From Phycisphaerales bacterium (lineage in GTDB: Bacteria > Planctomycetota > Phycisphaerae > Phycisphaerales > UBA1924): DNA of 64,000 nt. Of this stretch, positions 5,656 to 31,693 are shown one piece after another (positions within the stretch are counted from its first letter, which is position 1; every line of letters starts with the position of its first letter). The position numbers and the translations under genes were made by a program. The notes under the pieces are model-generated. The model did no database searches, was not told the DNA's origin, and was given only the letters and a program-made list of their open reading frames with translations. The stretch is taken from NCBI GenBank assembly GCA_029260295.1, contig JAJDDN010000004.1:10246-74245 (forward strand). Direction: 5' to 3'.

Positions 5656-7056
5656 TTACATCATCAGCAGATTTCCGATCAGCGAACCCAGCAGCAACGC
5701 CACAAGGATCAAGAACGGCGGCCAGAGCAACCGGTCAGCGATCCCGTTTGAGGATTTATCAACCGAGTTCTCTTGCATCGGGGTCGTCACAGCCGCCTCA
5801 GCCTGTGCCAATGCAGTCAGATCCGCCTCGCCCATCACATCATGATGAGCAATCGGTGGCACATCCCCGTCTTTGAGTGCACGCAGATCGACCAGCAGAT
5901 CCGAACAGTTTTTGTAACGGTGACGGACCTTCTTGGCCATCATCATCTCGATGACCTCGCTGATCCCCGCTGACAACTTCGGATTGACATGATCCGGCGG
6001 GATCAGCTCGCTCTTCAAATGCTTATGCATCACCGCGCTCGGGCTCTTGCCCTCAAACGGCACAGCACCCGTCACCATGTGGTACAGCGTCGTCCCCAGC
6101 GAATAAATATCCGCCGGCGGGCCGATCTCCTTCTCACCACGGATCTGCTCAGGTGAAATATAGTACGGCGTACCAAACGCACGCCCAGCCTCAGCCTCCG
6201 CGGCCTCCACATCACTCATCGCCCGCGCAAGCCCCATATCCGCAAGCTTGACCACACCCTCTTTGGTGATCATGATGTTCTTAGGCTTCACATCCCGGTG
6301 GATCAGCCCCATCTCATGGGCATGCTCGAGTGCCTCGGCCACCTGGATTATGATCTCAACAGCAAGTTGCTCTTTAAACCGCTTGTGCTCGACAATGTCC
6401 TCGTGCACAGTCCGCCCATCAACATACTCCATCACGAAGTAATAGATGTCCCCCTCGTTGCCCACATCAAACGCCTGAACAATGTTCGGGTGATTGAGCG
6501 ATGCAGCCGCCCGCCCCTCAGCAAAGAACCGCTCAATAAACTGAGGATTCTGCGAAAACTTCTCAGGCAGTTTCTTGAGCGCGACCATCCGGTCAAGCGA
6601 GACCTGCTTGGCCTTATAAACAGTCGCCATCGCACCGGCACCGAGCTTGCCGATGATTTTGTATCCAGAAATCTTGTTTCCCGAACGCTCCGCCTCGATC
6701 GACTCACGGAGCCGAGAGAGCTGACGCTTGGTGATGAACTCGCGATCAACGAGCACATGGGCGAGTGATTTTTCCGATGGCCCTTCGTCGCCCTCGCCAC
6801 GGGTCATGGTCTTGCAATGCTTGACCTCATCGCTGGTCGCCAGCCCCTGATCAATAACCAGACGGCCGATGAGCGTGTCAAGATTGGTACCCGACTTGGT
6901 CGCCGCCAAAATGGACTTCTCAGAATCCTCAATAGTCGCCGCATCGGTCGATCCAGAATCCAGCGGTGCCGTGTCCTCCGGAGAGATCGGGCTCACGCCA
7001 TCATGGGTGTCTTCGAGAAGACGAGGAACCGAGTTGTCGTCATGATTCTGAGACAC
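5656..7056 (-). CDS. serine/threonine protein kinase, C-terminally membrane anchored
   Basis: Hanks kinase motifs GKLGAGAMATVYKA, ALKKL, HRDVKPKNIMI, DMGLAR, GTPYYISPE. C-terminal TM helix WPPFLILVALLLGSLIGNLLMM. Confidence 0.85.
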   Translation of the reverse strand: MSQNHDDNSVPRLLEDTHDGVSPISPEDTAPLDSGSTDAATIEDSEKSILAATKSGTNLDTLIGRLVIDQGLATSDEVKHCKTMTRGEGDEGPSEKSLAHVLVDREFITKRQLSRLRESIEAERSGNKISGYKIIGKLGAGAMATVYKAKQVSLDRMVALKKLPEKFSQNPQFIERFFAEGRAAASLNHPNIVQAFDVGNEGDIYYFVMEYVDGRTVHEDIVEHKRFKEQLAVEIIIQVAEALEHAHEMGLIHRDVKPKNIMITKEGVVKLADMGLARAMSDVEAAEAEAGRAFGTPYYISPEQIRGEKEIGPPADIYSLGTTLYHMVTGAVPFEGKSPSAVMHKHLKSELIPPDHVNPKLSAGISEVIEMMMAKKVRHRYKNCSDLLVDLRALKDGDVPPIAHHDVMGEADLTALAQAEAAVTTPMQENSVDKSSNGIADRLLWPPFLILVALLLGSLIGNLLMM

Positions 7057-7347
7057 GAGTCGTCACCATCCAGCAGTTCAGCCGCTGCCAATCTGATCCC
7101 ACACAGGGCAGATTGGCCAAACAGCACAACACCGAGGGTAGGCAACCGATTCGGATTCGGAAAGAGCCACGGGCCAGCACAAAGCTCAACCCGTCCCTCG
7201 ACACAAGAACCCCGGCCAGAATGACCGGGACACAGACTGTACCAAGATACGGCCGGTTTTTGGTTGCGGATCATCCAGATCAGAACAAATCAAACATTCC
7301 TTCGCCCACCAATACCCAGACAACGCCCGATAGCCCACAAACCCCAG

Positions 7348-17122: not shown

Positions 17123-17214
17123 GGTGCCCTCCTTTGACCCGTAGGGCAAAGGAGGATTCGGTGGTGCGATGGATTCCAAGACCTCCTTTACCCTGCGGGC
17201 TAAAGGAGGGCACC
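17123..17214. other. twin-hairpin, four-segment inverted-repeat structure rich in SD/anti-SD-like sequence
   Basis: H1 is CCTCCTTTG(A)CCC-gta-GGGCAAAGGAGG (17128-17155). H2 is CCTCCTTTACCC-tgc-GGG(C)TAAAGGAGG (17182-17209). They are closed by GGTGC (17123-17127) pairing with GCACC (17210-17214). Confidence 0.5.
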
Positions 17215-17233: not shown

Positions 17234-18664
17234 TCAGTGAGCCACCCGATGCCCAAGCATCGGTGCAACCTCTTCAAGAATCCGGTCCAGCGTCTCCTGG
17301 TCCCGTGCCTCAGCATTCAGTCTCAGCAGCGGCTCCGTATTGGACTTCCGAATATTCACCCACCAGCCCTCGTCCTCGAAGCAATCAACCGTGATCCCGT
17401 CAAGCTCATCGATCTCGCATTTCTCTGCGTAGTACTCCATGACCGACTCGATCGCGACATCCTTCTCTTCGTTCTCAAAGTTGATCTCACCAGACTGCAT
17501 GTACCGCGCCATTGGAGCAATCAGCTCGCTCATCGGCTTGCCGCTCTTAGCGAGCACAGACAAGAAAGTCGCCATCGCAATCGCGCCCGAATCCGCATTA
17601 AAGTTCTTACGGAAGTAGAAGTGCCCCGAAAGCTCGCCGCCAAACATCGCCTTGTTCTCTGCAAGCAGCGCCTTCATGAACACATGCCCGACGCGTCCAC
17701 GCAATGGGGTGCCGCCGTGCTTGATGATCTCTTCCTCGACCGCCTTGGTCGAACGCAGGTCATACACAATCGACGCCCCGGGCTCCATCTCAAGGAAATA
17801 CTCCGCCAGCAGCGCGGTCATCTGGTCACAGGGAACAATCTTCCCCTTCTCATCGACCGCAACGCACCGGTCCGCATCGCCATCAAAGCACAGCCCCAGA
17901 TCCGCGCCCTGCTCAACAACCGCAGCGCAAAGCTGCTCAAGATTCGCTTCGACCAGCGGGTTCGGATCATGGGCCATCTCGCCCGACTCAATATCAAAGT
18001 TCATCTCGATGATCTCAAGACCATCGACATTCTCCCCATTGGTCCCAAACACCTTCGGGCACATCATCCCCGCCATGCCATTGGACGCATCAACAACAAT
18101 CTTGAGCGGCTTGCTCGCATCCCGTTCACCAAAGTCCAGGAACTTGAGCACATGCTTGGCATAAGGCTTCCAAAGATCCCGCACCTCAACAATCGCCGAC
18201 GGATCAGGCACCGCGTTCTTATCCACCATCGCCGCATACTTGCGGACAACATCAAGCCCCGTCGTCTCACCAACAGGCTTGGCCTTCCGCTTAGAAATCT
18301 TAAACCCGTTGTACTGAGGCGGATTATGCGAAGCCGTAATCACCACCCCACCCGAAGCATCGAGATAGTTAATCGCAAAGTACATCATCGGCGTATCAAT
18401 CAAACCAAGATCGATCACACTCGCGTGATAACAAGTCAGCCCCCGGACCAGCTCATCCCGAAGCGTCGGAGACGACTTCCGCATGTCCCGCCCGATCACA
18501 ACATTCCGCATCATCGGAGTGGACTCGCCGTCATTGGACGCTTCCTCAAGAAGGAACCGCGCCGAGCCGCACCCGATCTGCCAGCCCATCCGGTCAGTCA
18601 ATAGATCTGGATAAGTCCCACGGATGTCATAAGCCTTGAAAACGCGTCCAAGCATGGTCAGCAC
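17234..18664 (-). CDS. phosphomannomutase/phosphoglucomutase (alpha-D-phosphohexomutase family)
   Basis: FKAYDIRG, active-site ITASHNPPQYNGFK, Mg site FDGDADR, GGELSGH. Confidence 0.9.
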   Translation of the reverse strand: MLTMLGRVFKAYDIRGTYPDLLTDRMGWQIGCGSARFLLEEASNDGESTPMMRNVVIGRDMRKSSPTLRDELVRGLTCYHASVIDLGLIDTPMMYFAINYLDASGGVVITASHNPPQYNGFKISKRKAKPVGETTGLDVVRKYAAMVDKNAVPDPSAIVEVRDLWKPYAKHVLKFLDFGERDASKPLKIVVDASNGMAGMMCPKVFGTNGENVDGLEIIEMNFDIESGEMAHDPNPLVEANLEQLCAAVVEQGADLGLCFDGDADRCVAVDEKGKIVPCDQMTALLAEYFLEMEPGASIVYDLRSTKAVEEEIIKHGGTPLRGRVGHVFMKALLAENKAMFGGELSGHFYFRKNFNADSGAIAMATFLSVLAKSGKPMSELIAPMARYMQSGEINFENEEKDVAIESVMEYYAEKCEIDELDGITVDCFEDEGWWVNIRKSNTEPLLRLNAEARDQETLDRILEEVAPMLGHRVAH

Positions 18665-18776: not shown

Positions 18777-20915
18777 TTAGACCTTTGCCCCCACCCGGAT
18801 CACCTCAACCCCGCTCGGGATCGCATTCCGAAACGCCTTCCCATACCCAGTCGTCACAATCCGAGGATCCAAAACAACAACCCGTCCAGAATCTGTACTC
18901 GACCGGATCAACCGCCCAAACCCCTGCTTAAACCGGAGCACCGCCCGAGGCAGCGAATCATCCCGGAACGGATCACCACCGCGTAGCTTAATCAACTCAT
19001 TCCGCGCCTCAACAATCGGCCTATCCGGCGGATCAAACGGCAACCTCGTAATAATCACATTCCGCAGCCGGTCCCCCCGCACATCAACCCCCTGCCAAAA
19101 ACTCGAAGCCCCAAACAACACCCCCCGGTCATGCTCCCGGAACTCATCCAAAATCTGCGTCCGAGGCCCATCCTTCCCCTGCACCCAAACCCGATACCCC
19201 ATCGCCTCCAGCGGCCGACGCAAATCATCCGCCGTCTGATACAACAACCGGAAACTCGTAAACAACACAAACGCCCCACCGTCAGTCGCCACAACATGAT
19301 CCTTCACCCGCGAAGAGATCGCCTCTTCAAATGATTCCCCACTCGCACTCACCGACCCCCGCCTCGGCGTAGGAACAGATGCATCCACAAACACCTCCAC
19401 CTGCGACGCATAATCAAACGGACTCCCCAACTGCAAAACGCTCGCCCCCTCCCCCCCAAGCCGCGACAGACAATGCATAAACGCAGTCTCCGCATGCTCG
19501 GTCGTCTCATCAGGCTCAACATCCCGCGTCGTCAAGGTCGCCGAGGTCAACACCACCGAAGCATCCCCACCAAACAAATGCTCCTTCAACAACGGAGCCA
19601 CTTCAGTAGGACTGCACGCAATCGTCACCCGAACCCCCCCACGCCCAGGATTCCCGCTCGTCTCAATCCAATACACACACTTCTCGCTCGTCTGCTCGAT
19701 CAGCGTCTCGGCCTGATCCGAAATCTCCTTGGCCCGAATAGCAAAAGCATTCAACTCAAACCGATCAACCTCGTTGGTGACTTCATCCTTGAGCCGCTTA
19801 AGCCGCAGACACAAATCATTCATCGCAGGCGAAAGCACATTCTCCACGATCCCAGGAGCCCGCACCCGCCCGTTCACAAGCTCCCCGCTCACCATCTTCC
19901 GATTCAAAGAATCAAAGAACGCATCACTACACCGCTGCGCCTCCCGCACCAGCAAAATCGCCTTGTCCACAGGCTCAATATCCCCCGTCACCAACGCCAG
20001 CTGCGCCAGATACCCCCGCTGCGACTGCTCCTGATACAACTGCCGAAGCAAAAACCCGACCCGGCCTTCAGTCAGCGACAGCCCAAAGTGATCCGCCGCC
20101 GCATCCTCAACCGCGTGCGCCTCATCAAGCACCACATGGTCATACTCAGGCAAAAACCCAGCCCCCCCCCCAACCTTCATCCGCAGCGCCATATCCGAAA
20201 AGAACAACGCGTGATTACAGATCAACAGATCCGCATCATCCATCTCCTTGCGGGCCGCCTGATAAAAACAATCCCCATGATGCGGACACTTCCGCCCCAT
20301 GCAGTTCGTCGAATCCGACTGCACCGAGTTCCAAACCCCGCCCCGCTCAATCGAAGGCAGCGTAGAAAGCGTCCCATCCTCCGTCTCATACGCCCACTCC
20401 TCGATCACATCCAGCGACCGACGCGAAGGCCCATCCGGAAACAACTTATTCCGCCGCTCGCTCGCCAATCGCAGCCGACGAATAGACATGTAGTTCCCCC
20501 GCCCCTTAACCAGCACCGCCTTGCAAGCAACCGCTTCTTGCTCCTCCCCCGCCCCTGCGGGGGAGGTGGCCGAGTCTTCGAGGTCGGAGGGGGTCTTCTC
20601 TTCATCTTCCATCCCAGCCAACGCATCAAGCAAAATCGGAATATCCTTCTTCACAAGCTGTTCCTGCAGCGCAATCGTATTGGTCGCCACCACCACCTTC
20701 TTCCCCTCACGCATCGCCCGAACAATCGCAGGCACCAAATACGCAAAGCTCTTCCCAACCCCCGTCCCCGCCTCAACAAACAAATGCGCCCCAGACTCCA
20801 TCGCCCGATCCACCGCACAAGCCATCTCAACCTGCTCCCCGCGCGGCTCATACCCCTCCAAACGCTCCGCGATCGGCCCACCATCCCCAAGCAACATCTC
20901 AACATCATGACTCAC
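18777..20915 (-). CDS. dinG: DinG/Rad3-family ATP-dependent helicase (Fe-S type)
   Basis: VEAGTGVGKSFAYLVP, cysteine cluster CMGRKCPHHGDCFY, VLDEAHAVED, SATL, FWQGVDV. Carries an in-frame copy of the palindromic element. Confidence 0.85.
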   Translation of the reverse strand: MSHDVEMLLGDGGPIAERLEGYEPRGEQVEMACAVDRAMESGAHLFVEAGTGVGKSFAYLVPAIVRAMREGKKVVVATNTIALQEQLVKKDIPILLDALAGMEDEEKTPSDLEDSATSPAGAGEEQEAVACKAVLVKGRGNYMSIRRLRLASERRNKLFPDGPSRRSLDVIEEWAYETEDGTLSTLPSIERGGVWNSVQSDSTNCMGRKCPHHGDCFYQAARKEMDDADLLICNHALFFSDMALRMKVGGGAGFLPEYDHVVLDEAHAVEDAAADHFGLSLTEGRVGFLLRQLYQEQSQRGYLAQLALVTGDIEPVDKAILLVREAQRCSDAFFDSLNRKMVSGELVNGRVRAPGIVENVLSPAMNDLCLRLKRLKDEVTNEVDRFELNAFAIRAKEISDQAETLIEQTSEKCVYWIETSGNPGRGGVRVTIACSPTEVAPLLKEHLFGGDASVVLTSATLTTRDVEPDETTEHAETAFMHCLSRLGGEGASVLQLGSPFDYASQVEVFVDASVPTPRRGSVSASGESFEEAISSRVKDHVVATDGGAFVLFTSFRLLYQTADDLRRPLEAMGYRVWVQGKDGPRTQILDEFREHDRGVLFGASSFWQGVDVRGDRLRNVIITRLPFDPPDRPIVEARNELIKLRGGDPFRDDSLPRAVLRFKQGFGRLIRSSTDSGRVVVLDPRIVTTGYGKAFRNAIPSGVEVIRVGAKV
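20541..20610 (-). repeat. palindromic G/C-rich element, copy 1 (in-frame inside dinG)
   Basis: Plus strand: CTCCTCCCCCGCCCCTGCGGGGGAGGTGGCCGAGTCTTCGAGGTCGGAGGGGGTCTTCTCTTCATCTTCC. 10-bp stem CCTCCCCCGC/GCGGGGGAGG. Translates as EDEEKTPSDLEDSATSPAGAGEE in DinG. Confidence 0.8.
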
Positions 20916-21838
20916 TTGTTCGCAATCCCCAAAGGCATCCGCTTGGGCTCCCCGTCCTTCCGAGGATACATCTTCGGCGTAGCCCGCTGCTTCTCAAGCA
21001 CCACCACCCGCCCAGTAGGCGTCTCCACAGTCCCCACATGATGCGTGTGCAACATATGCAACGCCTTCTTCGCATCATCAACTTCCTCCCCCGCCTTCTC
21101 GCCCTTAGTCAGCACAACCAATCCCCCAACCTTCACCAAAGGCACCGTCAACTCCGCGATCATCGCAACCTTCCCAACAGCCCGCGCCATCGCCCCATCA
21201 TACTTCTCGCGATGCCCCCCTTCATACCCCTGCAAAACCTTCCGCCCCTTATCCTGCCCCAAACCCTCAGCACGACCATTAATCACCGTCACATTGGTCA
21301 ACCCCAACCACGCGACACAGTTCTCAATAAAGTCCGTCTTCCGCTTGGTCGCATCGAGCAACACAAAATCAATCCCAGGCATCACAATCGCCAAAGGAAT
21401 CCCAGGCAGCCCCCCACCAGAACCCACATCAATCACCCGCTTCCGTTCCCTCATCTCCCCCGTGGCACAGGCGTCCCGCCTGTGTTCTTCTCCTCCCCCG
21501 CACCCCGCAGGGGAGGTGGCCGAGTTTGGGGGGGCGAGGTCGGAGGGGGTCTTCTCTTCATCTTCATTCCCCCCACCCATCTCCCCAAGCACAGGCACCA
21601 GCGTCAACGCATCAAAGATATGCCGATCCCACGCCTCGTCCGCATCCCGGATCGCCGTCAGGTTCGTCCGCGTGTTCACATCCATCAACGCGGCCAAATA
21701 CTTCCCAAGCTGCTCAACCTCAGCATCCTCAAGCCCAATCCCAAACTCAGCAACCTTCCCCGCCCACTCTGCCGGAGGCTTGATTGCCTCAAGCTCATGC
21801 GAAAACGCCACCGGGCTCCCGCGAGTATCGTCCTTCAC
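20912..21838 (-). CDS. rsmG: 16S rRNA (guanine527-N7)-methyltransferase RsmG (GidB)
   Basis: LTAIRD..E.W.RHI.DAL and SAM motif VIDVGSGGGLPGIPLAI. The ORF maximum (21991) overlaps rodA by 149 bp, so I placed the start at GTG 21838, just after the rodA stop. The start is uncertain. Contains an in-frame element copy. Confidence 0.8.
   Translation of the reverse strand: MKDDTRGSPVAFSHELEAIKPPAEWAGKVAEFGIGLEDAEVEQLGKYLAALMDVNTRTNLTAIRDADEAWDRHIFDALTLVPVLGEMGGGNEDEEKTPSDLAPPNSATSPAGCGGGEEHRRDACATGEMRERKRVIDVGSGGGLPGIPLAIVMPGIDFVLLDATKRKTDFIENCVAWLGLTNVTVINGRAEGLGQDKGRKVLQGYEGGHREKYDGAMARAVGKVAMIAELTVPLVKVGGLVVLTKGEKAGEEVDDAKKALHMLHTHHVGTVETPTGRVVVLEKQRATPKMYPRKDGEPKRMPLGIANK
21466..21568 (-). repeat. 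palindromic G/C-rich element, copy 2 (in-frame inside rsmG) with an extra perfect hairpin
   Basis: CACAGGC-gtccc-GCCTGTG (21466-21484), then TTCTCCTCCCCCGCACCCCGCAGGGGAGGTGGCCGAG...GAGGTCGGAGGGGGTCTTCTCTTCATCTTCA. Translates as NEDEEKTPSDLAPPNSATSPAGCGGGEEHRRDACATGE. Confidence 0.8.
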
Positions 21839-21842
21839 AAAC

Positions 21843-23162
21843 TTACCTCGTGACGGCGCGCCCCGAGAATCCCGCGGACCTCCCGTAGGGCCTGGTTGGT
21901 TGCATGCTACTTTGGGGGGGTCCATCATCATCGGCGTACTCAAACGAAGCCCGGTAGGGCGGCCTAGGGCGGTGGAGCGCGACATTGACAATCAATCCCG
22001 TCATCACCCAGCAAGTCAGAAGACTCGATCCGCCATAACTCACGAAGGGTAGGGTGATCCCGATGATCGGGAGCATCCCGAGATTCATCCCCACATTAAT
22101 AATCACCTGAGCCGCAATAAAAGCCGGAATCCCCACCGCGATCATCCGCCCAAGCGGGTCCCGGCAGCTCGCCGCCACCAATAACGCCCCCCCGATCCAC
22201 ATCCCATACAGCACCAGCATCACAATCCCCCCCAATAACCCGAACCGATCCACCACCACCGCAAACACCATGTCATTGTGATCCTCAGGCAGCGAGTTGT
22301 ACCGCACAAGCGCCCGCGCCTCAGGCTCAGAAATCCCAGTCACCTGCCCCGCCCCAATCAGCGTCTGAGCCCGCGTGCTCTGATAGTTGATCCCATGCGA
22401 CCCAGAATCATCCCCCTGGAACTGCTTGACGATCCCCACAATCCGAGCCTTCTGATGAGGCCGCAGTAGCGGATACGCCGCCGGCGCCGCCATCGCCGCA
22501 CACAGCACAATCAAGGTCAGATGCCGCAACCGAGCCCCCGCCGCGATCAACATCGCAAACAGAGCAGGCACAAACAAACTCGCCGTCCCAAGATCCGGCT
22601 GCAGCGTAATCAACCCCACCGGAATCGCCGCGATAATCCCGGGCACAATCAACCCCTTGAGCTGACGATGCGCCGACCGGTACCGCATATACCGCGCCAC
22701 CAAAAGCACAAACGCGATCTTCATCACCTCCGACGGCTGAAAGTCCGCCACCCCCATATTGATCCAAGCCTTCGCCCCGTTCCGTGGAGTCACCAACCAA
22801 CTCGGCACCCCAGGCAGCATCAAGAAAATCAAAAGCCCAAGCCCAACCACATACATCAAAACCGAGAACAACCCAACAACCTTGTAGTGAGGCAGCGCGA
22901 TCACCACACACGCCATCAACCCAATAATCAAAAACACAATCTGCTTAAGCGCCTCAGCCGCCATCGGGCTCCCCGAAGTCTCCCGCACGCTCCCCTCCGC
23001 AATGTCAATCGCATAAATCCCGATAAAGGTCAACGCCAGCGATGCAAACAGCGTCAGCCAAGCCGCGTTCATCACCTTGACCGCATTGAAAAGAGACTGA
23101 TCCCCCCAGCCCGCGCCACGGATCGCCCGCACCCAAATCGGATCACGCCCAAACGCACTCAT
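21843..23162 (-). CDS. rodA: SEDS-family peptidoglycan glycosyltransferase RodA
   Basis: About 10 TM helices with FtsW/RodA-type motifs (QPSE.MK, PDLGT, LPFVSYGGSS). Lies immediately downstream of PBP2 with a 4-bp overlap. Confidence 0.85.
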   Translation of the reverse strand: MSAFGRDPIWVRAIRGAGWGDQSLFNAVKVMNAAWLTLFASLALTFIGIYAIDIAEGSVRETSGSPMAAEALKQIVFLIIGLMACVVIALPHYKVVGLFSVLMYVVGLGLLIFLMLPGVPSWLVTPRNGAKAWINMGVADFQPSEVMKIAFVLLVARYMRYRSAHRQLKGLIVPGIIAAIPVGLITLQPDLGTASLFVPALFAMLIAAGARLRHLTLIVLCAAMAAPAAYPLLRPHQKARIVGIVKQFQGDDSGSHGINYQSTRAQTLIGAGQVTGISEPEARALVRYNSLPEDHNDMVFAVVVDRFGLLGGIVMLVLYGMWIGGALLVAASCRDPLGRMIAVGIPAFIAAQVIINVGMNLGMLPIIGITLPFVSYGGSSLLTCWVMTGLIVNVALHRPRPPYRASFEYADDDGPPQSSMQPTRPYGRSAGFSGRAVTR

Positions 23163-25570
23163 GGCGAACCCCCATCCGAAACTACATTCCCAGGCAGATA
23201 CCCCTCGCTCACCAGCGCATGCACCACCTGATTATTAATCGCCCCAGACACCCGCGACCCAGACCCACCATAATCCACCACCACCGCAATCGCATACTCA
23301 GGCATCCCGCCAACCCCAACAAGCGACACATACCAACTGTGATCCCCCTCCCGAACAACCCGCGCCTCCAAAGGCCCATCCCCATCAGGATCAATCACCA
23401 AAGGCGAAGAAGTCGCCGTCCCCGTCTTGCCCCACACATCAATCCCCTCTGCATTGAACACCGGGTCTTGAATCGTGTCATAAGTCACATGATTCCCCGT
23501 GCCGTTCTTCGCGTTATTCACCACCTCGTACAATCCGTCAAGCGTCATCGCCACCGCCCAACCCGGCAACCCGATATTGCTCACCTCAGGCATCCCGCTC
23601 CTCTGAATCAGCCGCGGCGTGATCTCGAAACCACCACGCGCAATCGTCGAGTACGCATCAACCGCATGCAACGGCGTCCAAGTCACCGGCCCCTGGCCAA
23701 TCCCCATCTGGATCGCATCCTCAGGCGAAATCGAAAGCGTCCCCCCCTTCCCATCAAACACCCCCGTAGAACCAGCCCATGACGAACCAATCCCCAAATC
23801 AATCGGCACCCCAATCCCAAACATCGAATACACCTCTTCGATCCCAGAAGCCCCAAGCCGTTGGCCAAGCGTAAAGAAAAACACATTGGACGACACCATA
23901 AGCGCATCAGTCCCGTCAGGGTGCCTCTCCAACTGATCAAAATGGGTCAGACCAAGATGCTGGTATTTTTTAAATATCCACGACCGAAGCATATTGGGCC
24001 TGTCAGGATACAAATGCCCCGTCGCCTCGATCCGCTCCCCCTGCTCATACATCCCAAGCTTACTCGCCCCAGTCAAAACCAACGCCTTGGCCACAGACCC
24101 AGGCTGATAAGGCTTGGCAATCGCACGATTCACATACGGAAACCGCTCATTCTTAAACCGCTCAACACTCGCCTCAGTCGTAAGCCCCAACCGCCCCCAG
24201 TCCCCATCCCGCGGAGCCACAGGCGTAGACACCATCGCCAAAATCTCCCCAGTCGCCACTTCCAGCACCACCACCGCCGCATCAAGCTCCGTCCCCAACG
24301 CCATATCCGTATTGTCATGCCAAGGCTGCACCCGCGTCATCCCCACCATCGGATCCAGCACCGCCCGCACCCGCGCCGTAAGCGACATATCAAGCGTCAG
24401 CCGAACATCCTTCCCGCTGCTTGGCTGTATCTCGCTCACCCCACGCGTCTGCAGATGCTCCGTCCGCACCCCGCGCAACCCCCGCAGCGAATGCTCCATC
24501 GCCGCCTCAATCCCAGTATGCCCAACCCGATCATGATCCGTGTACCGCCCCCGATCCACACTATCTTCGGTCATCGAAGCAACCCGCAAAGACTCATCCC
24601 CCGCCAGCGCAACCCGACGCCGATCCGCATCCTCCTTAAACACCCGGTCCCGCACCCGCCCAAGCACCAGCGAACCAAGATCCTCAACAACAACCCGCAC
24701 CGTCGAATCATCCCGCAAAGGCAGCGGGAAGCTCGACCGATCCAGAATCACCGTTTCGGATTCAAACGGATACACCCGCCGAGTATTATCCGTAATCTCC
24801 ATCCCCGGAAACAACGGAATCATCTCCTCAAGCGCACTACCCCCCCCCTCCACATAACTCATCGCAGGCACCTCCCGCGTCACCATCCGCATCAACTCAA
24901 ACCCAACCTCATCGCTCACCCCCTCAACAACCGCGTGAGTCACCGTCTGCTCTTTGATCTTCGACGAAGAGTTCTTGACAAACTTCGCCAGATCCTCATC
25001 GCTCACCACAAAACCAAGCCGCTCGCGATCCTCAACCTTGTTCCGCACCCGCGCCCCAACAATCGACCGGTGCTGCCGTTCGATCCCATCAACAATCGAA
25101 TCCCGCCGCCCCATCAGCTCATCGAGCCCAACCCTCGTATACGCCGCGATCGTCCGCAGCGACGCATCCACATGCTTCTGATAAATCCGTCGATAGTTCT
25201 CAATAATCGCGTCGCGTTCCTCGGTTGAATACAGATCCCACTGATCCTTATGCGCCTTGCGGGCATACCGCCTCGCCCGGATAGACGCCCAATCCCCACT
25301 CAGCACCGAATACCCAATCGCCACATCATAACTCGCCTGGTCATACGCCAAGACCCGCCCAGTCCGATCCAAAACCCGCCCCCGCGTCGTCGGCAGCCAA
25401 GTCCGCCGGATCAACCGAGACTCGGCAACCTCCCGCGATGCCGCCCCGTCAACAACCGTCATCCAAGACATCCGCCCAAGGAGCCCAACAAACCCCGCGC
25501 ACACCATCAGCATCAACAGCACCAGCCGCCGATGAAACATACTCGGAATCAATCTAGACAAAGCAACCAT
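23159..25570 (-). CDS. mrdA: penicillin-binding protein 2 (elongasome transpeptidase), with large insertions
   Basis: N-terminal TM anchor. Transpeptidase motifs GSVAKAL (SxxK), SSN and KTGTA. Adjacent to rodA. Confidence 0.9.
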   Translation of the reverse strand: MVALSRLIPSMFHRRLVLLMLMVCAGFVGLLGRMSWMTVVDGAASREVAESRLIRRTWLPTTRGRVLDRTGRVLAYDQASYDVAIGYSVLSGDWASIRARRYARKAHKDQWDLYSTEERDAIIENYRRIYQKHVDASLRTIAAYTRVGLDELMGRRDSIVDGIERQHRSIVGARVRNKVEDRERLGFVVSDEDLAKFVKNSSSKIKEQTVTHAVVEGVSDEVGFELMRMVTREVPAMSYVEGGGSALEEMIPLFPGMEITDNTRRVYPFESETVILDRSSFPLPLRDDSTVRVVVEDLGSLVLGRVRDRVFKEDADRRRVALAGDESLRVASMTEDSVDRGRYTDHDRVGHTGIEAAMEHSLRGLRGVRTEHLQTRGVSEIQPSSGKDVRLTLDMSLTARVRAVLDPMVGMTRVQPWHDNTDMALGTELDAAVVVLEVATGEILAMVSTPVAPRDGDWGRLGLTTEASVERFKNERFPYVNRAIAKPYQPGSVAKALVLTGASKLGMYEQGERIEATGHLYPDRPNMLRSWIFKKYQHLGLTHFDQLERHPDGTDALMVSSNVFFFTLGQRLGASGIEEVYSMFGIGVPIDLGIGSSWAGSTGVFDGKGGTLSISPEDAIQMGIGQGPVTWTPLHAVDAYSTIARGGFEITPRLIQRSGMPEVSNIGLPGWAVAMTLDGLYEVVNNAKNGTGNHVTYDTIQDPVFNAEGIDVWGKTGTATSSPLVIDPDGDGPLEARVVREGDHSWYVSLVGVGGMPEYAIAVVVDYGGSGSRVSGAINNQVVHALVSEGYLPGNVVSDGGSP

Positions 25571-25680: not shown

Positions 25681-25745
25681 CTTCTCCTCCCCCGCGCCCC
25701 GCGGGGGAGGTGGCCGCCCAGCGGTCGGAGGGGGTCTTCCTCCCC
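25681..25745 (-). repeat. palindromic G/C-rich element, copy 3 (intergenic, upstream of mrdA)
   Basis: CTTCTCCTCCCCCGCGCCCCGCGGGGGAGGTGGCCGCCCAGCGGTCGGAGGGGGTCTTCCTCCC, in the same orientation as copies 1 and 2. It sits between the mrdA start (25570) and the LVIVD gene start (25860). Confidence 0.75.
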
Positions 25746-25859
25746 TCTTTGTAATTGCCAACCATTCCCCCCCTTTCACTCTTGCACCCACACCCGATCC
25801 CCAGTAAACTAACATATATAAAACTATATCCAACCCCCATCATCCCCGAGCCCCAACCC

Positions 25860-27914
25860 ATGCCCCCAAACCTCACCCCCACCCCCATCCAAACCAAAGC
25901 CACCACCCTCCTCCTCCTCGCCCTCCTAACACTCCTAACCCCCCAATCCAAAGCCGACGGCGTCCTCTGCAACTCCAGAAATATACTTGCTTTGCACGAC
26001 ACGCCAGGAAATGCAAGAAATGTCACGCTCGTTGGCACCACAGCATATGTCGCCGATGCGAACTCGGGGTTCCAGATACTCGACATGACTGATCCGACCA
26101 CCCCAGTATTACTAGGGTCATACGACACACCCGGATTCGCAAGCCGTGTGACCATAGTGGGAACAACAGCTTATATTGCAGAAGGCGGGTCCGGGTTACA
26201 AATCCTCGATGTGTCCGACCCCACCGCAATCGTATTTCTCGGATCATTCGACACACCAGGATCAGTTCAGAGTGTTGCCGTTGTGGCCGAAACAGCATAC
26301 ATAGCTGATGGCGATTCCGGCTTGTTAATCCTTGATGTCAGCAATCCAGCAAGCCCGTCAGTGCTCGGGACATTAAGCGCATTCAACAGCAACTTCAGCG
26401 ACATCGTTGTCGTAGACACAATCGCTTACATCACGGACACATTCGAAGGCCTCCGGACTGTTGATATTAGCAACACCAATTCGCCATCGTTGCTCAACCT
26501 AAGAATCATTCAAGGTGCTTCAAAGGATGTGGAGGTCAAAAATTCCGTCGCGTACATCGCAACAACAAACAACGGATTGTTGATATTGGATGTTTCAGAC
26601 CCGTCTTCGCCACAGTTTTTAGCAGCACGGGATACAAACGGAATAGCAGTTTCCGTTACCGTACAAGACACAGTCGCATATGTGTCCGATGGTGATCTGG
26701 GCGTGCTTCTTTATGATGTAAGCAATCCAGCTTCACCTGTCCACATCGGTTCCTATGACACACCCAACAGTGCCCTAGCGGTCGCAACAGATGGAGTCAT
26801 TGCCTATGTCGCCAATGGCTTGGCAGGTATCCAAATTATAGATGTCAGCAATCCCTCTCAGGATTCAATCGTTGGAACATATCCCCTATCCGATGCAACT
26901 GAAATCGATATGGTTGGCAATGTGTCATTTGTCTTACGAACTTTCGCAGGCATGCGAATAATTGATGTCAACAATCCAGCAACACCAACCTTGCTCGGTT
27001 CATACGACAAGCCCGGTTTCAGAGTGTATACAGGAATCTCAGTTGTTGAAAACACTGCATACATCACCGATACAACATCAGGACTTCAGATTGTAGATGT
27101 TTCCGATCCCGAAAATCCTGTTTTCGTCAACTCCTTGAGCTTGCCCAGTAGCCCATCCGATGTGACCGTCGTCGGCTCAACCGCCTTTGTAGTGTCAGGG
27201 TCAACAGGATTGCATCTCGTTGATGTGAGTGATCATTCATCACCGTTCCTGATCAGTTCTATTGATACACCAGGCTTCGCAAGCCATGTTGCTTTAGCAG
27301 GATCAAACGCATTCATAGCAGATGACGACAACGGCTTAGTAATCATCAGCTTGAAAAACCAAGCGAACCCAGTCATCCTCGGCACATACAACACCCCCGG
27401 CGATGCCACAAGTGTCTTTGTAGTAGGCTCCATTGCCTATGTTGCCGATCGCCTTTCAGGCTTGCAATTAATCGATGTATCGAATCCTGCAACTCCAGAA
27501 CTACTCGGATCATACGACACTCCAAGCGAAGCAAGAAGTGTTGTAGTCTCAAATACAACCGCCTACATCGCAGATTTCACCGCAGGCCTGCACATAATCG
27601 ATGTTCAAAACCCACAATCTCCCGTTCATCTGGCATCCAAAGACACCCCCAACAGAGCCACTAGTCTGGTTCTAAACGATTCATTCGTATTCATTGCCGA
27701 TGATGACGCAGGCCTCCAAATCATCGACATCTCCGACTGCCCCCCATGCCCCGCAGACCTCAACAACGACAACACCCTCGACTTCTTCGACATCTCAACA
27801 TTCCTCACCGCCTTCTCAGCATCCGACCCCGTCGCAGACTTCTCCCAAGACGGCCAATACGACTTCTTCGACATCGCCGCATTCCTCACCGCCTTCTCCG
27901 CCGGCTGCCCCTAA
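25860..27914 (+). CDS. LVIVD-repeat beta-propeller protein with C-terminal GCP-terminated dockerin-like anchor
   Basis: Signal peptide MPPNLTPTPIQTKATTLLLLALLTLLTPQSKA (internal ATG 25860). About 14 repeats of the form AY(V/I)AD...GL.I(L/I)DVS(N/D)P..P..LGSYDTPG. The tail is CPADLNNDNTLDFFDISTFLTAFSASDPVADFSQDGQYDFFDIAAFLTAFSAGCP. Confidence 0.8.
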   Translation: MPPNLTPTPIQTKATTLLLLALLTLLTPQSKADGVLCNSRNILALHDTPGNARNVTLVGTTAYVADANSGFQILDMTDPTTPVLLGSYDTPGFASRVTIVGTTAYIAEGGSGLQILDVSDPTAIVFLGSFDTPGSVQSVAVVAETAYIADGDSGLLILDVSNPASPSVLGTLSAFNSNFSDIVVVDTIAYITDTFEGLRTVDISNTNSPSLLNLRIIQGASKDVEVKNSVAYIATTNNGLLILDVSDPSSPQFLAARDTNGIAVSVTVQDTVAYVSDGDLGVLLYDVSNPASPVHIGSYDTPNSALAVATDGVIAYVANGLAGIQIIDVSNPSQDSIVGTYPLSDATEIDMVGNVSFVLRTFAGMRIIDVNNPATPTLLGSYDKPGFRVYTGISVVENTAYITDTTSGLQIVDVSDPENPVFVNSLSLPSSPSDVTVVGSTAFVVSGSTGLHLVDVSDHSSPFLISSIDTPGFASHVALAGSNAFIADDDNGLVIISLKNQANPVILGTYNTPGDATSVFVVGSIAYVADRLSGLQLIDVSNPATPELLGSYDTPSEARSVVVSNTTAYIADFTAGLHIIDVQNPQSPVHLASKDTPNRATSLVLNDSFVFIADDDAGLQIIDISDCPPCPADLNNDNTLDFFDISTFLTAFSASDPVADFSQDGQYDFFDIAAFLTAFSAGCP

Positions 27915-27970
27915 ACCCCCCAGCCCCCCATCCACCACATTCTCTCTCCCGAGTAGCGAATGCCGGGTGC

Positions 27971-28010
27971 CACTGCTTGACCGTCCTCGGCAAGCAGTGT
28001 CTTTTCTTCT
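27971..28010 (+). terminator. intrinsic terminator after the LVIVD gene
   Basis: CACTGCTTG-11 nt-CAAGCAGTG followed by TCTTTTCTTCT. Confidence 0.6.
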
Positions 28011-28057
28011 CCAAAGATGACAATTGGCAAATCACCCCTCCCCCCCTACAATCCCCC

Positions 28058-29440
28058 ATGACCACCAAAACCCCCACCGATACAACAGTTCTCAACTCCT
28101 ACAACCCCTCCACAGGCCAGCTCGTCGGCTCTGTCCCGGTCACCCCGGTCTCGCAAATCGAAGACATCATCGCCAAAGCAAACGCCGCACTCCCTGCATG
28201 GCAAGCCATGACCCCCCAACAACGAGCCGACATCCTCAAACCAGCAGGCAAAGTTCTCGCCGACCGCGCCGAAGAACTCGGCAAACTCCTCTCCCTCGAA
28301 CAAGGCAAACCACTCGCAGAAGGCATCGGCGAAGTCAGCGGCTGCGCTTCCCGCATGGACTGGGAAAACGACGAGGTCGCCAGCGCCGTCCAACCAGAAA
28401 TCCTCAAATCCGACGGCATCGAATCCACAATCCACTACGACGGCTACGGCGTATGCGCCGCCATCACCCCGTGGAACTTCCCGCTCCTCATGCCGCACTG
28501 GACAATCATCCCCGCGCTCATCGCCGGAAACACCGTCATCTCCAAACCCTCAGAGCAAACCCCGCTCATCGCTGACGAGTATGTCAAAATCCTCAACCAG
28601 TTCCTCCCCGATGGCGTCCTCCAAATAGTCCACGGCGAGGACGACCAAGGCAAAGCACTCGTCGCCGGAGACATCCACCTCATCGCATTCACCGGCTCCA
28701 AAAACGCCGGCCAGCACATCATGGCCGCCGCCGCCAATGGACTCAAACGCCTCATCCTAGAACTCGGCTCCAAAGACCCAATGATCGTACTCCAAGGCGC
28801 CGACCTCGACAAAGCCGCAAAGTTCGGTGTCAACAACGCCATCAGAAACTGCGGCCAGGTCTGCGTCTCCACCGAACGCTTCTATGTCCAAGACTCCATC
28901 AAGGCCGAGTTCATCAGCAAACTCGCCGAGGAGTTCAAAAACTTCCCGGTCGGCGACTGCAACGACGAAGCCGCCACAGTCGGCCCGATGGTCATGCGCG
29001 AACAAAAAGACCATGTCGTCGCCCAGATCCAAGACGCCATCACCAAGGGCGCCAAGGTTATCCTCGGAAACGAACCCATGGACGGCAACTTCATCTCCCC
29101 CACCATCCTCGACAACTGTAACCACAGCATGGACATCATGACCGTCGAGACCTTCGGCCCGGTCATTTGCATCGCGACCGTCAAAGACGCCGACGAAGCC
29201 GTCGCCCTCGCCAATGATACAGAATACGGCCTCGGAGCCGTCGTCTATGGGGAAGAAACCATCGCCCGGAAGGCCGCCAACCAGCTCACCGCCGGGATGA
29301 TCGGGGTCAACAAAGGCATCGGCGGCGCGACCGGCACCCCTTGGGTCGGAGCACGCCATTCTGGATTCTCCTACCACAAAGGCCCGATGGGCCACCGCCA
29401 GTTCTGCCAGGTTCGGGTGGTGAGCATCAACGCCGAGTGA
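28058..29440 (+). CDS. NAD(P)-dependent aldehyde dehydrogenase family protein
   Basis: ITPWNFPL, FTGSKNAG, ELGSKDP, catalytic-Cys region NCGQVCVSTERF, EEFGPV-type ETFGPV. The internal ATG at 28058 removes a low-complexity N-terminal extension of the ORF. Confidence 0.9.
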   Translation: MTTKTPTDTTVLNSYNPSTGQLVGSVPVTPVSQIEDIIAKANAALPAWQAMTPQQRADILKPAGKVLADRAEELGKLLSLEQGKPLAEGIGEVSGCASRMDWENDEVASAVQPEILKSDGIESTIHYDGYGVCAAITPWNFPLLMPHWTIIPALIAGNTVISKPSEQTPLIADEYVKILNQFLPDGVLQIVHGEDDQGKALVAGDIHLIAFTGSKNAGQHIMAAAANGLKRLILELGSKDPMIVLQGADLDKAAKFGVNNAIRNCGQVCVSTERFYVQDSIKAEFISKLAEEFKNFPVGDCNDEAATVGPMVMREQKDHVVAQIQDAITKGAKVILGNEPMDGNFISPTILDNCNHSMDIMTVETFGPVICIATVKDADEAVALANDTEYGLGAVVYGEETIARKAANQLTAGMIGVNKGIGGATGTPWVGARHSGFSYHKGPMGHRQFCQVRVVSINAE

Positions 29441-29455
29441 TCCGATCCGGTATGC

Positions 29456-31693
29456 TTGGCTATGCCCAGCGTGATGAGTGATCTCACAACAACCATGAGT
29501 CAGCGTGCCAAGTCTGCTATTGAGCGGATGGGTAGTGAATTGTTGTCGTCACGCACGGGAACGAGTGATCTTGATATTGACCGGCTGGGATTTGAGTTGC
29601 GGGTGGTGCTTCAGCGGATTTTGATACTTGATCGTGTGGGAATGCTGGGTGCCGATCTGACTTGGGAGAAGTTGTTGGATATGGATCTGGAACGGCAATT
29701 GTTCCACGTGGAACAATTGCCTAAGGACCGGATTTGGTCGGGGGATTGGGTGGGTCTTGTGCGGCGGGAGTTTGGCTTGTCCGGCGGGAAATGGTTTGAT
29801 GAAATCGTCGAATTGGTTCGGGGGGATTCGGTGGAGATGGGGGCGGTGGATGAGTCATTGATGGGGTGGGTGGCTCGGATTGAGGATGGTCAGTTTGTGT
29901 TGGTTGCCGAGGATGATTCTGATCGGAAGGTTGGGGGGGTGTTTTATACGCCGGCTTCTGTGGTTGGGTATGTGCTGGACCGGGCACTCTCGCCTGCGAT
30001 TGATGGGTGCGGGAAAGATGTGAATCGGTTGCTTGGTTTGCGGGTGTGTGATCCGGCGTGTGGGTGCGGGTATTTTTTGATTGAATCTGCTCGGCGGATT
30101 TCGGCTGCGATTGAAGTGGCCGGGGGTGGTGATCGGTATTCAGATGTGATCCGGGGGTGTGTGTTTGGGGGCGATGTGAATCGGATGACGGTGGAGGTGT
30201 GCCGATGGTTGTTGTGGCTTGAGGTTTCGGATAGGTCGATTTCGGTTGATGAGCTTCGGCGGAATGTGGTGTGCGGCGATGGGTTGGTTGACGAGGATAC
30301 ATTTGGAAAAAATGGGAATGGGGGGTTTGATGTGGTGGTTGGGAATCCTCCGTTTTTGAATCAGCTGGGGTCTGGGACGGCGCGGTCGGCGGAGCGGGTC
30401 AAGCGGCTTCGCAAGCGTGGGCTTGTTGGAGGGGCGGCGTATACGGATGAGGCTTCTGCGTTCTTTGTGCTGGGGTTGGGGATGGTGGGTGGGATCGAGG
30501 AGCAGAAAGAAAGACCCCCTCCGTCTGCGAAGACGCAGACACCTCCCCCGGAGGCCCGGGGGAGGCGGAAGATTGGGCGGGTGTGTATGGTGCAGCCGCA
30601 GTCGGTGGTGGCTACTCGGGGCGGGGCCTTTGCGCGGGCGAGGGTTGCTGAGATGGGGAGTTTGGAATCGTTGTGGGTTTCCAATGAGCATGTGTTTGGG
30701 GATGCGAGTGTGTATACATGTGCGCCTTGTGTGGTGGTTGGGGGAGAGGGAGAAACTCGGTCGGTTCAAAGACCACTCCCTGACGGTCGCGGCTCGTTGA
30801 AGAGTGGAGCGGGAGTTGTGCGGCGGTTTTCTGGTGGTGGGTTTGTTGAGCATGAGCCGTTGGTTATTTCGAGCGACGAGATTGGGGGGCTTGCGACTTG
30901 GTCTTCTATTGCGGCGGTGACGATGGGGGTTCCTGAGATTGGGATTGAGTCGGCGGGGGTTGTTGGTGATATGGCGACGGCGACTGCGGATTTCCGGGAT
31001 GAGTACTACGGGCTTGTGGGGAAGTTGGTTGAGGATTCAGACTGTCGTGATCTGGAGGGATCGCCTGCGGTGCTGACTACGGGGCTTGTCGATTTGGGGG
31101 TGAACCACTGGGGGCGTAAGGCGACGCGGATTCATAAGGAGCGATGGGAATCGCCTCGGGTTGGGGCGGCTGGGATTGTTGGGGATGCTCGGCTTTCAAA
31201 GTGGGTGGCGGCTCGGCGTGTGGAGAAGGTTGTGGTGGCGACGCAGACGAAGGTAGTGGAGGCGTTTGTGGATGCGACGGGGGAGTTTGTTGTTTTGACG
31301 CCGATGATTTCGGTGATGTTTCGGAATGAAGACATGCAGGAGCCGAAGACGGCACCTACATGGCACCCAGAGAAGAGTGTTTGGATGATTGGGGCGGCGA
31401 TCGGGTCGCCGGTGTGTAGTGCCTTTGCGATGCGGTTCTTTGGGGGGGCGGCGATGCATGCCGATGCGCTCAAGATGAGTGCTCGGCAGGTGATGGAGTT
31501 GCCGCTGCCGGCTGATGGTGCGGGATGGTCAGCAGGGGCCGAGGCCTTTGAACGGGTGCACAGTGCTTGTGGCGATGAATATGACCGTGCGATCACAGAG
31601 TTTGGGGAAGTTATGTGCGGGGCGTATGGGGTTGAGGGGGATGATTTGGAGGGGTTGATGGGGTGGTGGCTTGGGCGGCTGGGGATCGGGTGA
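29456..31693 (+). CDS. Eco57I/type IIG-like N6-adenine DNA methyltransferase (no nuclease domain recognised), solitary
   Basis: GGVFYTPASVVGYVLD, SAM motif I VCDPACGCGYFL, catalytic motif IV VVGNPPF. The long C-terminal region is plausibly a target-recognition domain. Carries an in-frame element copy. Confidence 0.75.
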   Translation: MAMPSVMSDLTTTMSQRAKSAIERMGSELLSSRTGTSDLDIDRLGFELRVVLQRILILDRVGMLGADLTWEKLLDMDLERQLFHVEQLPKDRIWSGDWVGLVRREFGLSGGKWFDEIVELVRGDSVEMGAVDESLMGWVARIEDGQFVLVAEDDSDRKVGGVFYTPASVVGYVLDRALSPAIDGCGKDVNRLLGLRVCDPACGCGYFLIESARRISAAIEVAGGGDRYSDVIRGCVFGGDVNRMTVEVCRWLLWLEVSDRSISVDELRRNVVCGDGLVDEDTFGKNGNGGFDVVVGNPPFLNQLGSGTARSAERVKRLRKRGLVGGAAYTDEASAFFVLGLGMVGGIEEQKERPPPSAKTQTPPPEARGRRKIGRVCMVQPQSVVATRGGAFARARVAEMGSLESLWVSNEHVFGDASVYTCAPCVVVGGEGETRSVQRPLPDGRGSLKSGAGVVRRFSGGGFVEHEPLVISSDEIGGLATWSSIAAVTMGVPEIGIESAGVVGDMATATADFRDEYYGLVGKLVEDSDCRDLEGSPAVLTTGLVDLGVNHWGRKATRIHKERWESPRVGAAGIVGDARLSKWVAARRVEKVVVATQTKVVEAFVDATGEFVVLTPMISVMFRNEDMQEPKTAPTWHPEKSVWMIGAAIGSPVCSAFAMRFFGGAAMHADALKMSARQVMELPLPADGAGWSAGAEAFERVHSACGDEYDRAITEFGEVMCGAYGVEGDDLEGLMGWWLGRLGIG
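30497..30571 (+). repeat. palindromic G/C-rich element, copy 4 (in-frame inside the methyltransferase, opposite genomic orientation)
   Basis: GAGGAGCAGAAAGAAAGACCCCCTCCGTCTGCGAAGACGCAGACACCTCCCCCGGAGGCCCGGGGGAGGCGGAAG. Hairpins GTCTGCG/CGCAGAC and CCTCCCCCGG/CCGGGGGAGG. Translates as EEQKERPPPSAKTQTPPPEARGRRK. Confidence 0.75.

Follow-up and report, generated by a model that had tools for sequence, protein, structure and literature searches.

What is the G/C-rich repeat of about 60 bases that occurs four times within 10 kb of a marine Phycisphaerales genome, and how has it come to lie in frame inside conserved genes? The window analysed here, i.e., the whole stretch of 64,000 nucleotides (contig JAJDDN010000004.1, positions 10,246 to 74,245), carries all four copies between 20.5 and 30.6 kb. 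A model's reading of the letters, hereafter the sequence-only reading, had described the copies as palindromic elements comparable to those of Rickettsia. The evidence presented below suggests that they probably belong to a family of dispersed repeats of approximately 55–65 nt, of a hairpin-bridged class II intrastrand-triplex kind, which are selfish or neutral and whose orientation is shaped by replication.

When the window was re-read, the four copies were confirmed where they had been reported. The 12-mer GGAGGGGGTCTT was observed four times against 0.28 expected, and the pattern of the first hairpin three times where none was expected, the remaining copy having one stem mismatch. A covariance model (A2/R1), trained on 19 Planctomycetota copies and run on the window with filters off, identified exactly four elements (75.7, 71.0, 66.5 and 54.3 bits; E = 1e-13 to 1e-19); the top match in the 64 kb that did not overlap them scored 9.6 bits. 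A generic scan of the window for triplex motifs returned the same four copies and nothing else. Comparison with Rfam produced only chance-level microRNA and small-RNA matches, both at gathering thresholds (the window and 18 loci) and at relaxed thresholds (two regions).

In all four copies the blocks follow one another in the same order on one strand: a pyrimidine block, CCTCCCCC (Y); its purine complement, GGGGGAGG (R); a single T; a variable, self-complementary hairpin; the block GGAGGGGG (RH); and then TC. Y and R make up hairpin 1, with a stem of 10–11 bp that contains one C/A mismatch in copy 2. Hairpin 2 is 14–25 nt long, begins one T past the GGGGGAGG arm and stops exactly at the third block; its sequence varies while its self-complementarity is kept. 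The third block has no complementary partner nearby, being the mirror image, and not the complement, of the purine arm of hairpin 1. The conserved first stem and variable second hairpin had been correctly recognised in the sequence-only reading, but the repeat is not the simple palindrome that was described there, since its third block mirrors GGGGGAGG. Folding as DNA with ViennaRNA gave the two hairpins alone, with block 3 unpaired, for copies 1, 3 and 4 (z = -2.0, -2.8 and -5.0, respectively). Copy 2 is degenerate, has a stem mismatch and an expanded hairpin 2, and folded no better than shuffled sequences (z = +0.4). In the window copies, 8 of 8 triplets agree with the triplex base rules (G*G-C, A*A-T and T*A-T) when read in antiparallel register. 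The copies and their parts lie as follows.

20539..20598, + strand: copy 1, inside DinG (gene on the - strand); covariance model 71.0 bits, with support from folding
20543-20552, 20553-20556, 20557-20566 and 20567, + strand: Y arm, loop and R arm of hairpin 1, then the single T, copy 1
20568-20585 and 20586-20593, + strand: hairpin 2 and RH block GGAGGGGG of copy 1, then TC and TTC
21488..21554, + strand: copy 2, inside RsmG/GidB (gene on the - strand), partly decayed; covariance model 54.3 bits
21492-21501, 21502-21506, 21507-21516 and 21517, + strand: Y arm, loop and R arm (mismatch at 21509) of hairpin 1, then the single T, copy 2
21518-21541 and 21542-21549, + strand: expanded hairpin 2 and RH block of copy 2
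25682..25739, + strand: copy 3, intergenic, without a spanning open reading frame; covariance model 66.5 bits
25686-25696, 25697-25699, 25700-25710 and 25711, + strand: Y arm, loop and R arm of hairpin 1, then the single T, copy 3
25712-25726 and 25727-25734, + strand: hairpin 2 and RH block of copy 3
23159-25570, - strand, and 25755-27914, + strand: the neighbours of copy 3, PBP2 and an LVIVD-repeat gene
30510..30569, - strand: copy 4, inside an N6-adenine DNA methylase (gene on the + strand); covariance model 75.7 bits, fold z = -5.0
30565-30556, 30555-30552, 30551-30542 and 30541, - strand: Y arm, loop and R arm of hairpin 1, then the single T, copy 4
30540-30523 and 30522-30515, - strand: hairpin 2 and RH block of copy 4

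The relationship among the three blocks was evaluated in a wider sample. One genome per species was scanned with GGGGAGGTG-N8-38-GGAGGGGGTC, which produced at least 118 loci from which the co-variation sample was drawn; most of the matches had an upstream CCTCCCC arm and a self-complementary linker. Model R1 made 179 + 60 matches in those loci, many of them not forced by the scan pattern. The proportion of paired cells in the alignment was 92.9%, compared with 74.2% in shuffles. Double-sided changes in the helices numbered 377, compared with 124 in shuffles and 42–75 in slid registers, although such helix counts lean toward structure, the alignment having been fitted to the model. Compensatory changes were present in both helices, which upholds the earlier suggestion that the family is under selection for structure.

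Co-variation of block 3 is not an artefact of this kind, because the model treats that block as unpaired. Scored in parallel register, blocks 1 and 3 showed 27 double changes, compared with 4.0 +/- 1.7 after shuffling (reached by 0 of 500 shuffles) and with 1–4 in slid registers. Variant copies co-varied in all three blocks by the triplex rules G*G-C, A*A-T, T*A-T and T*C-G. At triplet position 1, C-G*G (142 copies) and G-C*T (26 copies) accounted for all but a few cases, and a T-A pair was accompanied by A or T as the third base (T-A*A, T-A*T). The mirror rule was also kept by roughly ten further stem families from these loci, whose linkers are either short or a hairpin; where the stem has an A-T pair, their third block has A or T. 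These families include GGGAGAAGG/GGATGAGGG, GGGGAAG/GATGGGG, GGGGAGGG/GGGTGGGG, GGGGGAGAGG/GGAGAGGGGG or GGTGAGGGGG, and GGGGGAAGGG/GGGATGGGGG, as well as GGGAGAGGG/GGGTGAGGG, which resembles TM_ECO, an intrastrand triplex repeat of E. coli. The presence of T opposite A-T pairs fits a purine motif on the Y-R-RH strand and not a pyrimidine motif on its complement; a pyrimidine-motif triplex on the mRNA-sense strand was rejected as incompatible with third-strand variants containing T, and it needs acidic pH. Since RNA is reported not to adopt purine-motif triplexes (PMC4666352), the constraint points to single-stranded DNA (ssDNA).

Three of the four window copies (1, 2 and 4) lie in frame inside the open reading frames (ORFs) of DinG, RsmG and the N6-DNA-methylase. 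The claim of in-frame insertion into conserved genes holds for these three; copy 3 lies between genes and has an orthologous copy in two relatives (L121 and L123). The host ORFs are the following.

18777..20915, - strand: DinG-family helicase ORF of 712 amino acids, hosting copy 1 (Pfam DEAD, DEAD_2 and Helicase_C_2)
20912..21991, - strand: RsmG (GidB) ORF hosting copy 2 (Pfam GidB and alignment); translation probably begins at a start site downstream of the TTG listed
29456..31693, + strand: N6_Mtase/Eco57I-type methylase ORF hosting copy 4 (Pfam), the insert lying between FFVLGLGMV and GRVCMVQPQS

The DinG ORF matched E. coli DinG (6FWR) with E = 3e-44, and its translation through copy 1, GMEDEEKTPSDLEDSATSPAGAGEEQEAV, is free of stops, as had been stated. 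The insert comes directly after DIPILLDAL and just before a conserved Cys-Lys and the KGRGNY block. Among 120 orthologues, those of 72% identity or less read ALKEMGECK without an insert, and relatives at 81–91% had variable inserts, all at this one loop, which contained the element (P0002-P0004), other repeats or a plain acidic linker. The alignment with orthologues bears out a lineage-specific insertion: distant DinG proteins are without both insert and peptide, and further copies of the repeat exist, so that the sequence-only reading stands on both points. In an AlphaFold model of DinG, the predicted local distance difference test (pLDDT) fell below 50 over residues 99–122, which correspond to the insert. 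Two other relatives (P0005 and P0006) have a different duplicated segment, …DGLEAHPT… twice, in the same loop (approximately 20530–20620); because of this, the loop is a hotspot for several kinds of insert.

In RsmG, the insert lies between HIFDALTLVPVL and VIDVGSGGG, and splits the Pfam GidB domain into two stretches. It was absent from a relative with a 71% identical DinG (L125) and common to four closer genomes. Orthologous RsmG copies kept their pairing with an altered peptide; the distal pairs of stem 1 were GC/GC, GT/AC or GG/CC, depending on the relative. Compared with the nearest methylase orthologue (P0122/L126; 77% identical), whose site is empty, copy 4 adds 81 nt (27 codons); that orthologue has GTG directly before and AAAGATGGG directly after the point of insertion. 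The element, with further sequence, was also present in an orthologue of 63% identity. In L127, the methylase site has about 130 nt extra beside the element. Finally, the window DinG copy matched the RsmG copy of L121 at 82 of 84 bases, flanks included, and L121's own DinG copy differed; these sequences suggest that gene conversion may have occurred among copies.

A second, small palindrome abuts copy 2 inside RsmG (CACAGGCG-TCC-CGCCTGTG, 21466..21484, + strand; peptide HRRDACATGE). It is unrelated to the triplex repeat and absent from the RsmG of three relatives. Its family in marine Phycisphaerales, GAAGA(Y)CACAGGCG-GGA/TCC-CGCCTGTGCCACGGG, is about 30–35 nt long and often lies 10–100 nt from a copy of the triplex motif, the two having a GAAGA/TCTTC flank in common. 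Sites were seen in L121 (5281 and 10373), L124 (five copies), L129, L145, L160, L200, L205, L218, L234 and L235, and also within the inserts of two host genes, DinG (P0002) and TsaD (L194).

In-frame insertion into genes recurs independently. Further instances concerned PurL (L094), CarA (between its two domains), WecB (within the epimerase domain) and TsaD (where the domain is split); ComEC is probably another. The translated inserts use no fewer than three frames or orientations (EEKTPSD..ATSPAG.GEE, RPPPSAKTQTPPPEARGR and TSSPVADGGGG). Matches in a CHAT-domain gene (L169) and a DUF7405 gene (L232) were without block 1 or hairpin and were excluded as chance; long ORFs spanning copies in L001 (folD), L104, L141, L138, L192 and L153 were rejected as upstream read-through, and not coding. 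The window is unusual in having three of its four copies within genes, because most of about 100 metagenome copies had no spanning ORF or lay just upstream of genes. Phycisphaerae copies are usually single, with the 3' end GGGGGTC-TTC. One Phycisphaerales metagenome-assembled genome (CBDDIA010000011.1; L104, 4963-5436) contains seven tandem copies of the triplex motif, all in the same orientation, in about 470 nt upstream of a C5 DNA methyltransferase gene; the array includes a CCTTCCCC/GGGGAAGG/GGATGGGG variant.

The orientation of the repeat was compared with base composition. GC skew in the window is extreme, at -0.3 to -0.5, and flips to +0.3 to +0.5 at approximately 29300–29500, at the 15-nt junction between an aldehyde dehydrogenase gene (27746–29440, + strand) and the methylase gene (29456–31693, + strand). 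A replication origin (oriC) at the switch (about 29.45 kb) was ruled out, as a junction of 15 nt leaves no room; the switch is possibly a rearrangement breakpoint. The coding strand of the aldehyde dehydrogenase gene is C-rich and, for this reason, the skew is not simply driven by gene strand. In strongly skewed Phycisphaerales genome loci, the Y-R-RH strand was the C-rich strand in about 12 of 12 copies. In an independent metagenome sample it was the C-rich strand in 42 copies against 7 (p ~1e-6, the copies not being fully independent). Because the aldehyde dehydrogenase coding strand is also C-rich, the bias follows strand asymmetry, presumably that of replication, and not transcription. An orientation bias of this strength is apparently new for triplex repeats. 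The LVIVD-repeat gene beside copy 3 (25755–27914) is unlike its surroundings in having a G+C content of 0.47–0.50, compared with approximately 0.58, and almost no GC skew; it is missing at this position in a relative (L124), and may have been acquired recently. Elsewhere in the window, two near-identical hairpins (17128–17155 and 17182–17209; CCTCCTTTG-(ACCCGTAGGG)-CAAAGGAGG) lie 54 nt apart, just downstream of a phosphomannomutase gene (17234–18664, - strand), with arms resembling Shine-Dalgarno (SD) and anti-SD sequences and without a mirror block.

The sequence-only reading knew of no equivalent in Planctomycetota; the family proves not to be specific to that phylum, its core being found in at least five others and in viral contigs. 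Among the matches listed, true elements occurred in Planctomycetota (Phycisphaerae), Acidimicrobiia, Chloroflexota, Bacteroidota/Rhodothermales, Binatia, one candidate phyla radiation (CPR) genome and many Alphaproteobacteria (Caulobacter, Phenylobacterium, Brevundimonas, sphingomonads, Reyranella, Asaia and others). Outside Planctomycetota, copies are typically intergenic, and an A type (GG../GGAGG) and a B type (GC../TGAGG) alternate in inverted pairs or arrays (L036, L016 and L085). BLAST against plasmids gave few matches, which included an intergenic inverted pair in a Sphingobium plasmid, with a sigma factor on one side and a copper oxidase on the other. About 20 of 48 pattern matches in viral contigs were true elements. 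The IMG/VR contigs carry Caulobacter- and Chloroflexi-type copies, often two per contig (L252, L253, L264, L268, L275, L279, L281, L283 and L288; L258-L263, L280 and L289), and may be phages or the host flanks of prophages; the Chloroflexi-type copies have a 12-bp stem, CCTCCCCCAAAT/ATTTGGGGGAGG, and an extra hairpin in loop 1. A single 8-kb block of a Dehalococcoidia chromosome (OZ219765.1; L027) has an exact copy of the TM_ECO pattern at 5790–5830 (CCCTCTCCC-TCT-GGGAGAGGG-CTA-GGGTGAGGG) and two hairpin-bridged copies at 7147–7301, which shows that triplex repeats with short loops and with hairpin loops can be found together in a genome.

These patterns are probably best explained as follows. 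When single-stranded, the repeat would fold hairpin 1, and hairpin 2 would provide a rigid turn, placing the third block antiparallel along the purine arm to give a class II purine-motif intrastrand triplex. The repeat would behave as selfish or neutral DNA, copied and homogenised among sites, probably by gene conversion and/or some form of ssDNA-based mobilisation. It would have no role at the protein level, and genic copies would persist only in frame, in permissive, disordered surface loops; a lack of protein-level constraint is argued for because at least three frames or orientations are used, disorder is predicted, and the RsmG peptide changes while pairing persists. Replication would shape orientation, the triplex-capable strand being the C-rich strand, which is taken as the leading-strand template; that template would be least exposed as ssDNA, and so would limit the formation of a polymerase-blocking triplex. 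The bias could reflect selection against such blocks, or replication-coupled insertion.

Several points tell against this explanation. The folding of a triplex is deduced from base sequence only, and the TM_ECO triplex was observed in ssDNA in vitro, and not in double-stranded DNA or by dimethyl sulphate (DMS) footprinting in vivo (PMC4666352). The surroundings of the copies revealed neither a transposase, which was not searched for systematically, nor terminal inverted repeats or a target-site duplication. Independent co-variation events are limited, given about ten stem families with amplified subfamilies, and the G-C*T change could instead lengthen hairpin 2 across a T/T mismatch. The orientation counts may include orthologous copies from related populations, and the equation of skew with replication direction is an assumption. 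Furthermore, a purely selfish element would hardly be expected to keep nearly the same stem in different phyla, which could mean that there is a conserved host factor or function. A related candidate was rejected: a miniature inverted-repeat transposable element (MITE) with target-site duplication was suggested by the TCTTCT-like sequences that flank the window copies on both sides, but 93 metagenome copies were only weakly pyrimidine-rich upstream; at the methylase, comparison of filled and empty sites showed extra unrelated bases and no clear duplication.

Four other explanations were weighed against that of a selfish or neutral triplex repeat. An element of REP/REPIN or MITE type could be moved in trans by a dedicated transposase (e.g., RAYT/HUH acting on the folded strand at the fork), in which case the mirror block would be a recognition or guide sequence and not a structural third strand. 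The copies are indeed dispersed and numerous, their inverted A/B pairs and alternating arrays resemble BIMEs and REPINs, their orientation is biased with replication as in ssDNA transposons, filled and empty sites both exist, and copies occur in viral contigs. However, the copies lack a GTAG-type tag, terminal inverted repeats and a target-site duplication, and no transposase gene was seen beside the copies (no systematic search was made). TM_ECO is not associated with mobile elements in E. coli, and hairpin 2, the natural handle for a protein, is not conserved in sequence; movement of this kind is considered unlikely. Regulation of translation or mRNA stability by a cis-acting RNA element is considered very unlikely, although GGAGGTG/GGAGG would serve as a SD sequence and CCTCCCC as an anti-SD-like arm. 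GGAGGTG is a 7-nt match to the SD consensus (16S rRNA 3' end); the end of some copies is 5–10 nt ahead of a start codon, as in L008, L070, L084, L107 and L109, in which an ATG comes immediately after GGAGGGGGTC, and the L001 copy lies just upstream of folD. Nevertheless, an ATG directly follows the element in only about 5 of 128 copies among the matches listed; most Phycisphaerales copies are antisense to the neighbouring or host gene; and many copies are in inverted pairs, in arrays or inside genes. No Rfam family was matched at gathering or relaxed thresholds, a SD-sequestering hairpin cannot explain mirror co-variation with T opposite A-T, and, as noted, purine-motif triplexes reportedly do not form in RNA.

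The recurrence of one peptide frame in DinG, RsmG, CarA and WecB, and the retention of inserts in several related genomes, could also be read as the mark of a coding module like that of Rickettsia, with the peptide (e.g., EEKTPSDL..ATSPAGAGEE) selected for a function in host proteins. Against this, the methylase, ComEC, TsaD and PurL use other frames or orientations, most members of the family are intergenic, and orthologous inserts keep the DNA pairing and change the peptide; the insert is predicted to be disordered, and the host loops are hypervariable and also take unrelated repeats. Such a function is extremely improbable. Lastly, the G-runs of blocks 2 and 3 could form a G-quadruplex (G4) that competes with hairpin 1 as a switch. 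There are four such runs (GGGGG, GG, GG and GGGGG), a G4 has been proposed for E. coli BoxC and archaeal rPQS, and G4/hairpin/triplex equilibria are reported for related repeats (PMC8044849, citing Kaplan 2016). However, two of the runs are only GG, and the central loop would be a hairpin of 15–25 nt. A G4 has no need for the A/T positions of block 3 to mirror block 2, and the G-C*T and T-A*A/T co-variation is not predicted by it; we regard the switch as decidedly unlikely.

For an intrastrand triplex repeat, a hairpin-bridged architecture is apparently new, and so, within the literature searched, is in-frame insertion into genes; three-way co-variation across phyla is apparently unreported. 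Looking up the element's raw letters in the literature brought only irrelevant matches. A broader proposition, that a cross-phylum superfamily of hairpin-bridged triplex repeats forms a triplex or a protein-bound equivalent in cells, is coupled to replication and colonises essential genes, is advanced tentatively, being possible but on balance doubtful. If true, the co-variation would be natural, evolutionary evidence for such a triplex or equivalent in cells, and the family would be a second independent case of the phenomenon known from Rickettsia palindromic elements (RPEs), and a source of new protein loops. BoxC/PIT/TM repeats have been known for about 30 years without a function or evidence of a triplex role in vivo. 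Co-variation of three strands over about ten stem families is evidence of a kind usually accepted for RNA structure, and here it points toward a DNA triplex; the orientation bias linked to replication makes the idea that triplexes harm replication testable. Triplex repeats can evidently live in frame in helicase, rRNA-methylase, carbamoyl-phosphate-synthase and other housekeeping genes, giving lineage-specific disordered loops and, for annotation, accounting for odd low-complexity segments (…KTPSD..ATSPAG.GEE…) in Phycisphaerae proteins.

The repeat resembles several known systems in part. RPEs are simple palindromes of about 100–150 bp, which reportedly insert in frame into conserved protein genes and also occur between genes (Ogata et al. 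2000). In common with these, the present family consists of a short structured repeat that is in frame in conserved genes and absent from orthologues, with a peptide that is apparently tolerated. It differs from RPEs in its length of about 60 nt, its mirror block and its Phycisphaerales host, which belongs to another phylum; moreover, the family spans many phyla and is mostly intergenic. Of the RPE-like interpretation offered in the sequence-only reading, the structure-constrained repeat and the lineage-specific in-frame inserts stand, but the sequence and size that define RPEs do not appear to apply. The terminal inverted repeats of MITEs have no counterpart here, the ends of the element not being inverted repeats. 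REP/BIME/REPIN elements (PMC2817692) share its size range, extragenic abundance, possible ssDNA biology and alternating pairs or arrays of two subtypes (L016, L085 and L036). However, their GTAG/CGTC tetranucleotide tag is not in its flanks or core, the core is conserved across phyla where REPs are species-specific, and the mirror block is without a REP counterpart. The recurrent PQS/triplex repeats of Methanomicrobiaceae, which form a hairpin, antiparallel triplex or G4 in vitro as ssDNA, are likewise G-rich, with an adjacent complementary C-tract, intergenic and multi-copy; they differ in being class I (with the C-tract at the 3' end) and archaeal, in having no bridging hairpin and in not being reported inside genes (PMC8044849).

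The closest comparison is with the intrastrand triplex repeats BoxC (1990s), PIT elements (Hoyne et al. 2000) and TM_ECO (Holder et al. 2015) (PMC4666352). TM_ECO has the form CCCTCNCCC-N3-6-GGGNGAGGG-N3-GGGNGAGGG, and its single strand folds into a triplex in vitro; in E. coli it is always intergenic, shows no strand bias and has no known function, and its type A and type B copies occur in inverted pairs and are linked to local genome variability (PMC4666352). The window stems depart from this consensus, being CCTCCCCC/GGGGGAGG/GGAGGGGG in place of CCCTCNCCC/GGGNGAGGG/GGGNGAGGG; the second loop is a T plus a structured hairpin of 14–25 nt, compared with 3 nt in TM_ECO; and three of the four window copies lie in coding sequence, with biased orientation in Phycisphaerales. 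Published triplex searches restricted the loops to 1–6 nt and 0–10 nt (PMC4666352), and the hairpin-bridged family would escape them because its second loop is a 14–25-nt hairpin. In other respects the resemblance is extensive: the Y-R-RH order on one strand, the G/C-rich blocks of 8–10 nt in which one or two A/T positions fix the register, the T or A in the third strand opposite A-T, the dispersed, multi-copy occurrence with A and B subtypes in inverted pairs, the lack of a known function and the variable presence among close relatives are all common to BoxC, PIT and TM_ECO. In their block order and their triplets, the window copies are class II Y-R-RH repeats of the BoxC/PIT/TM kind.

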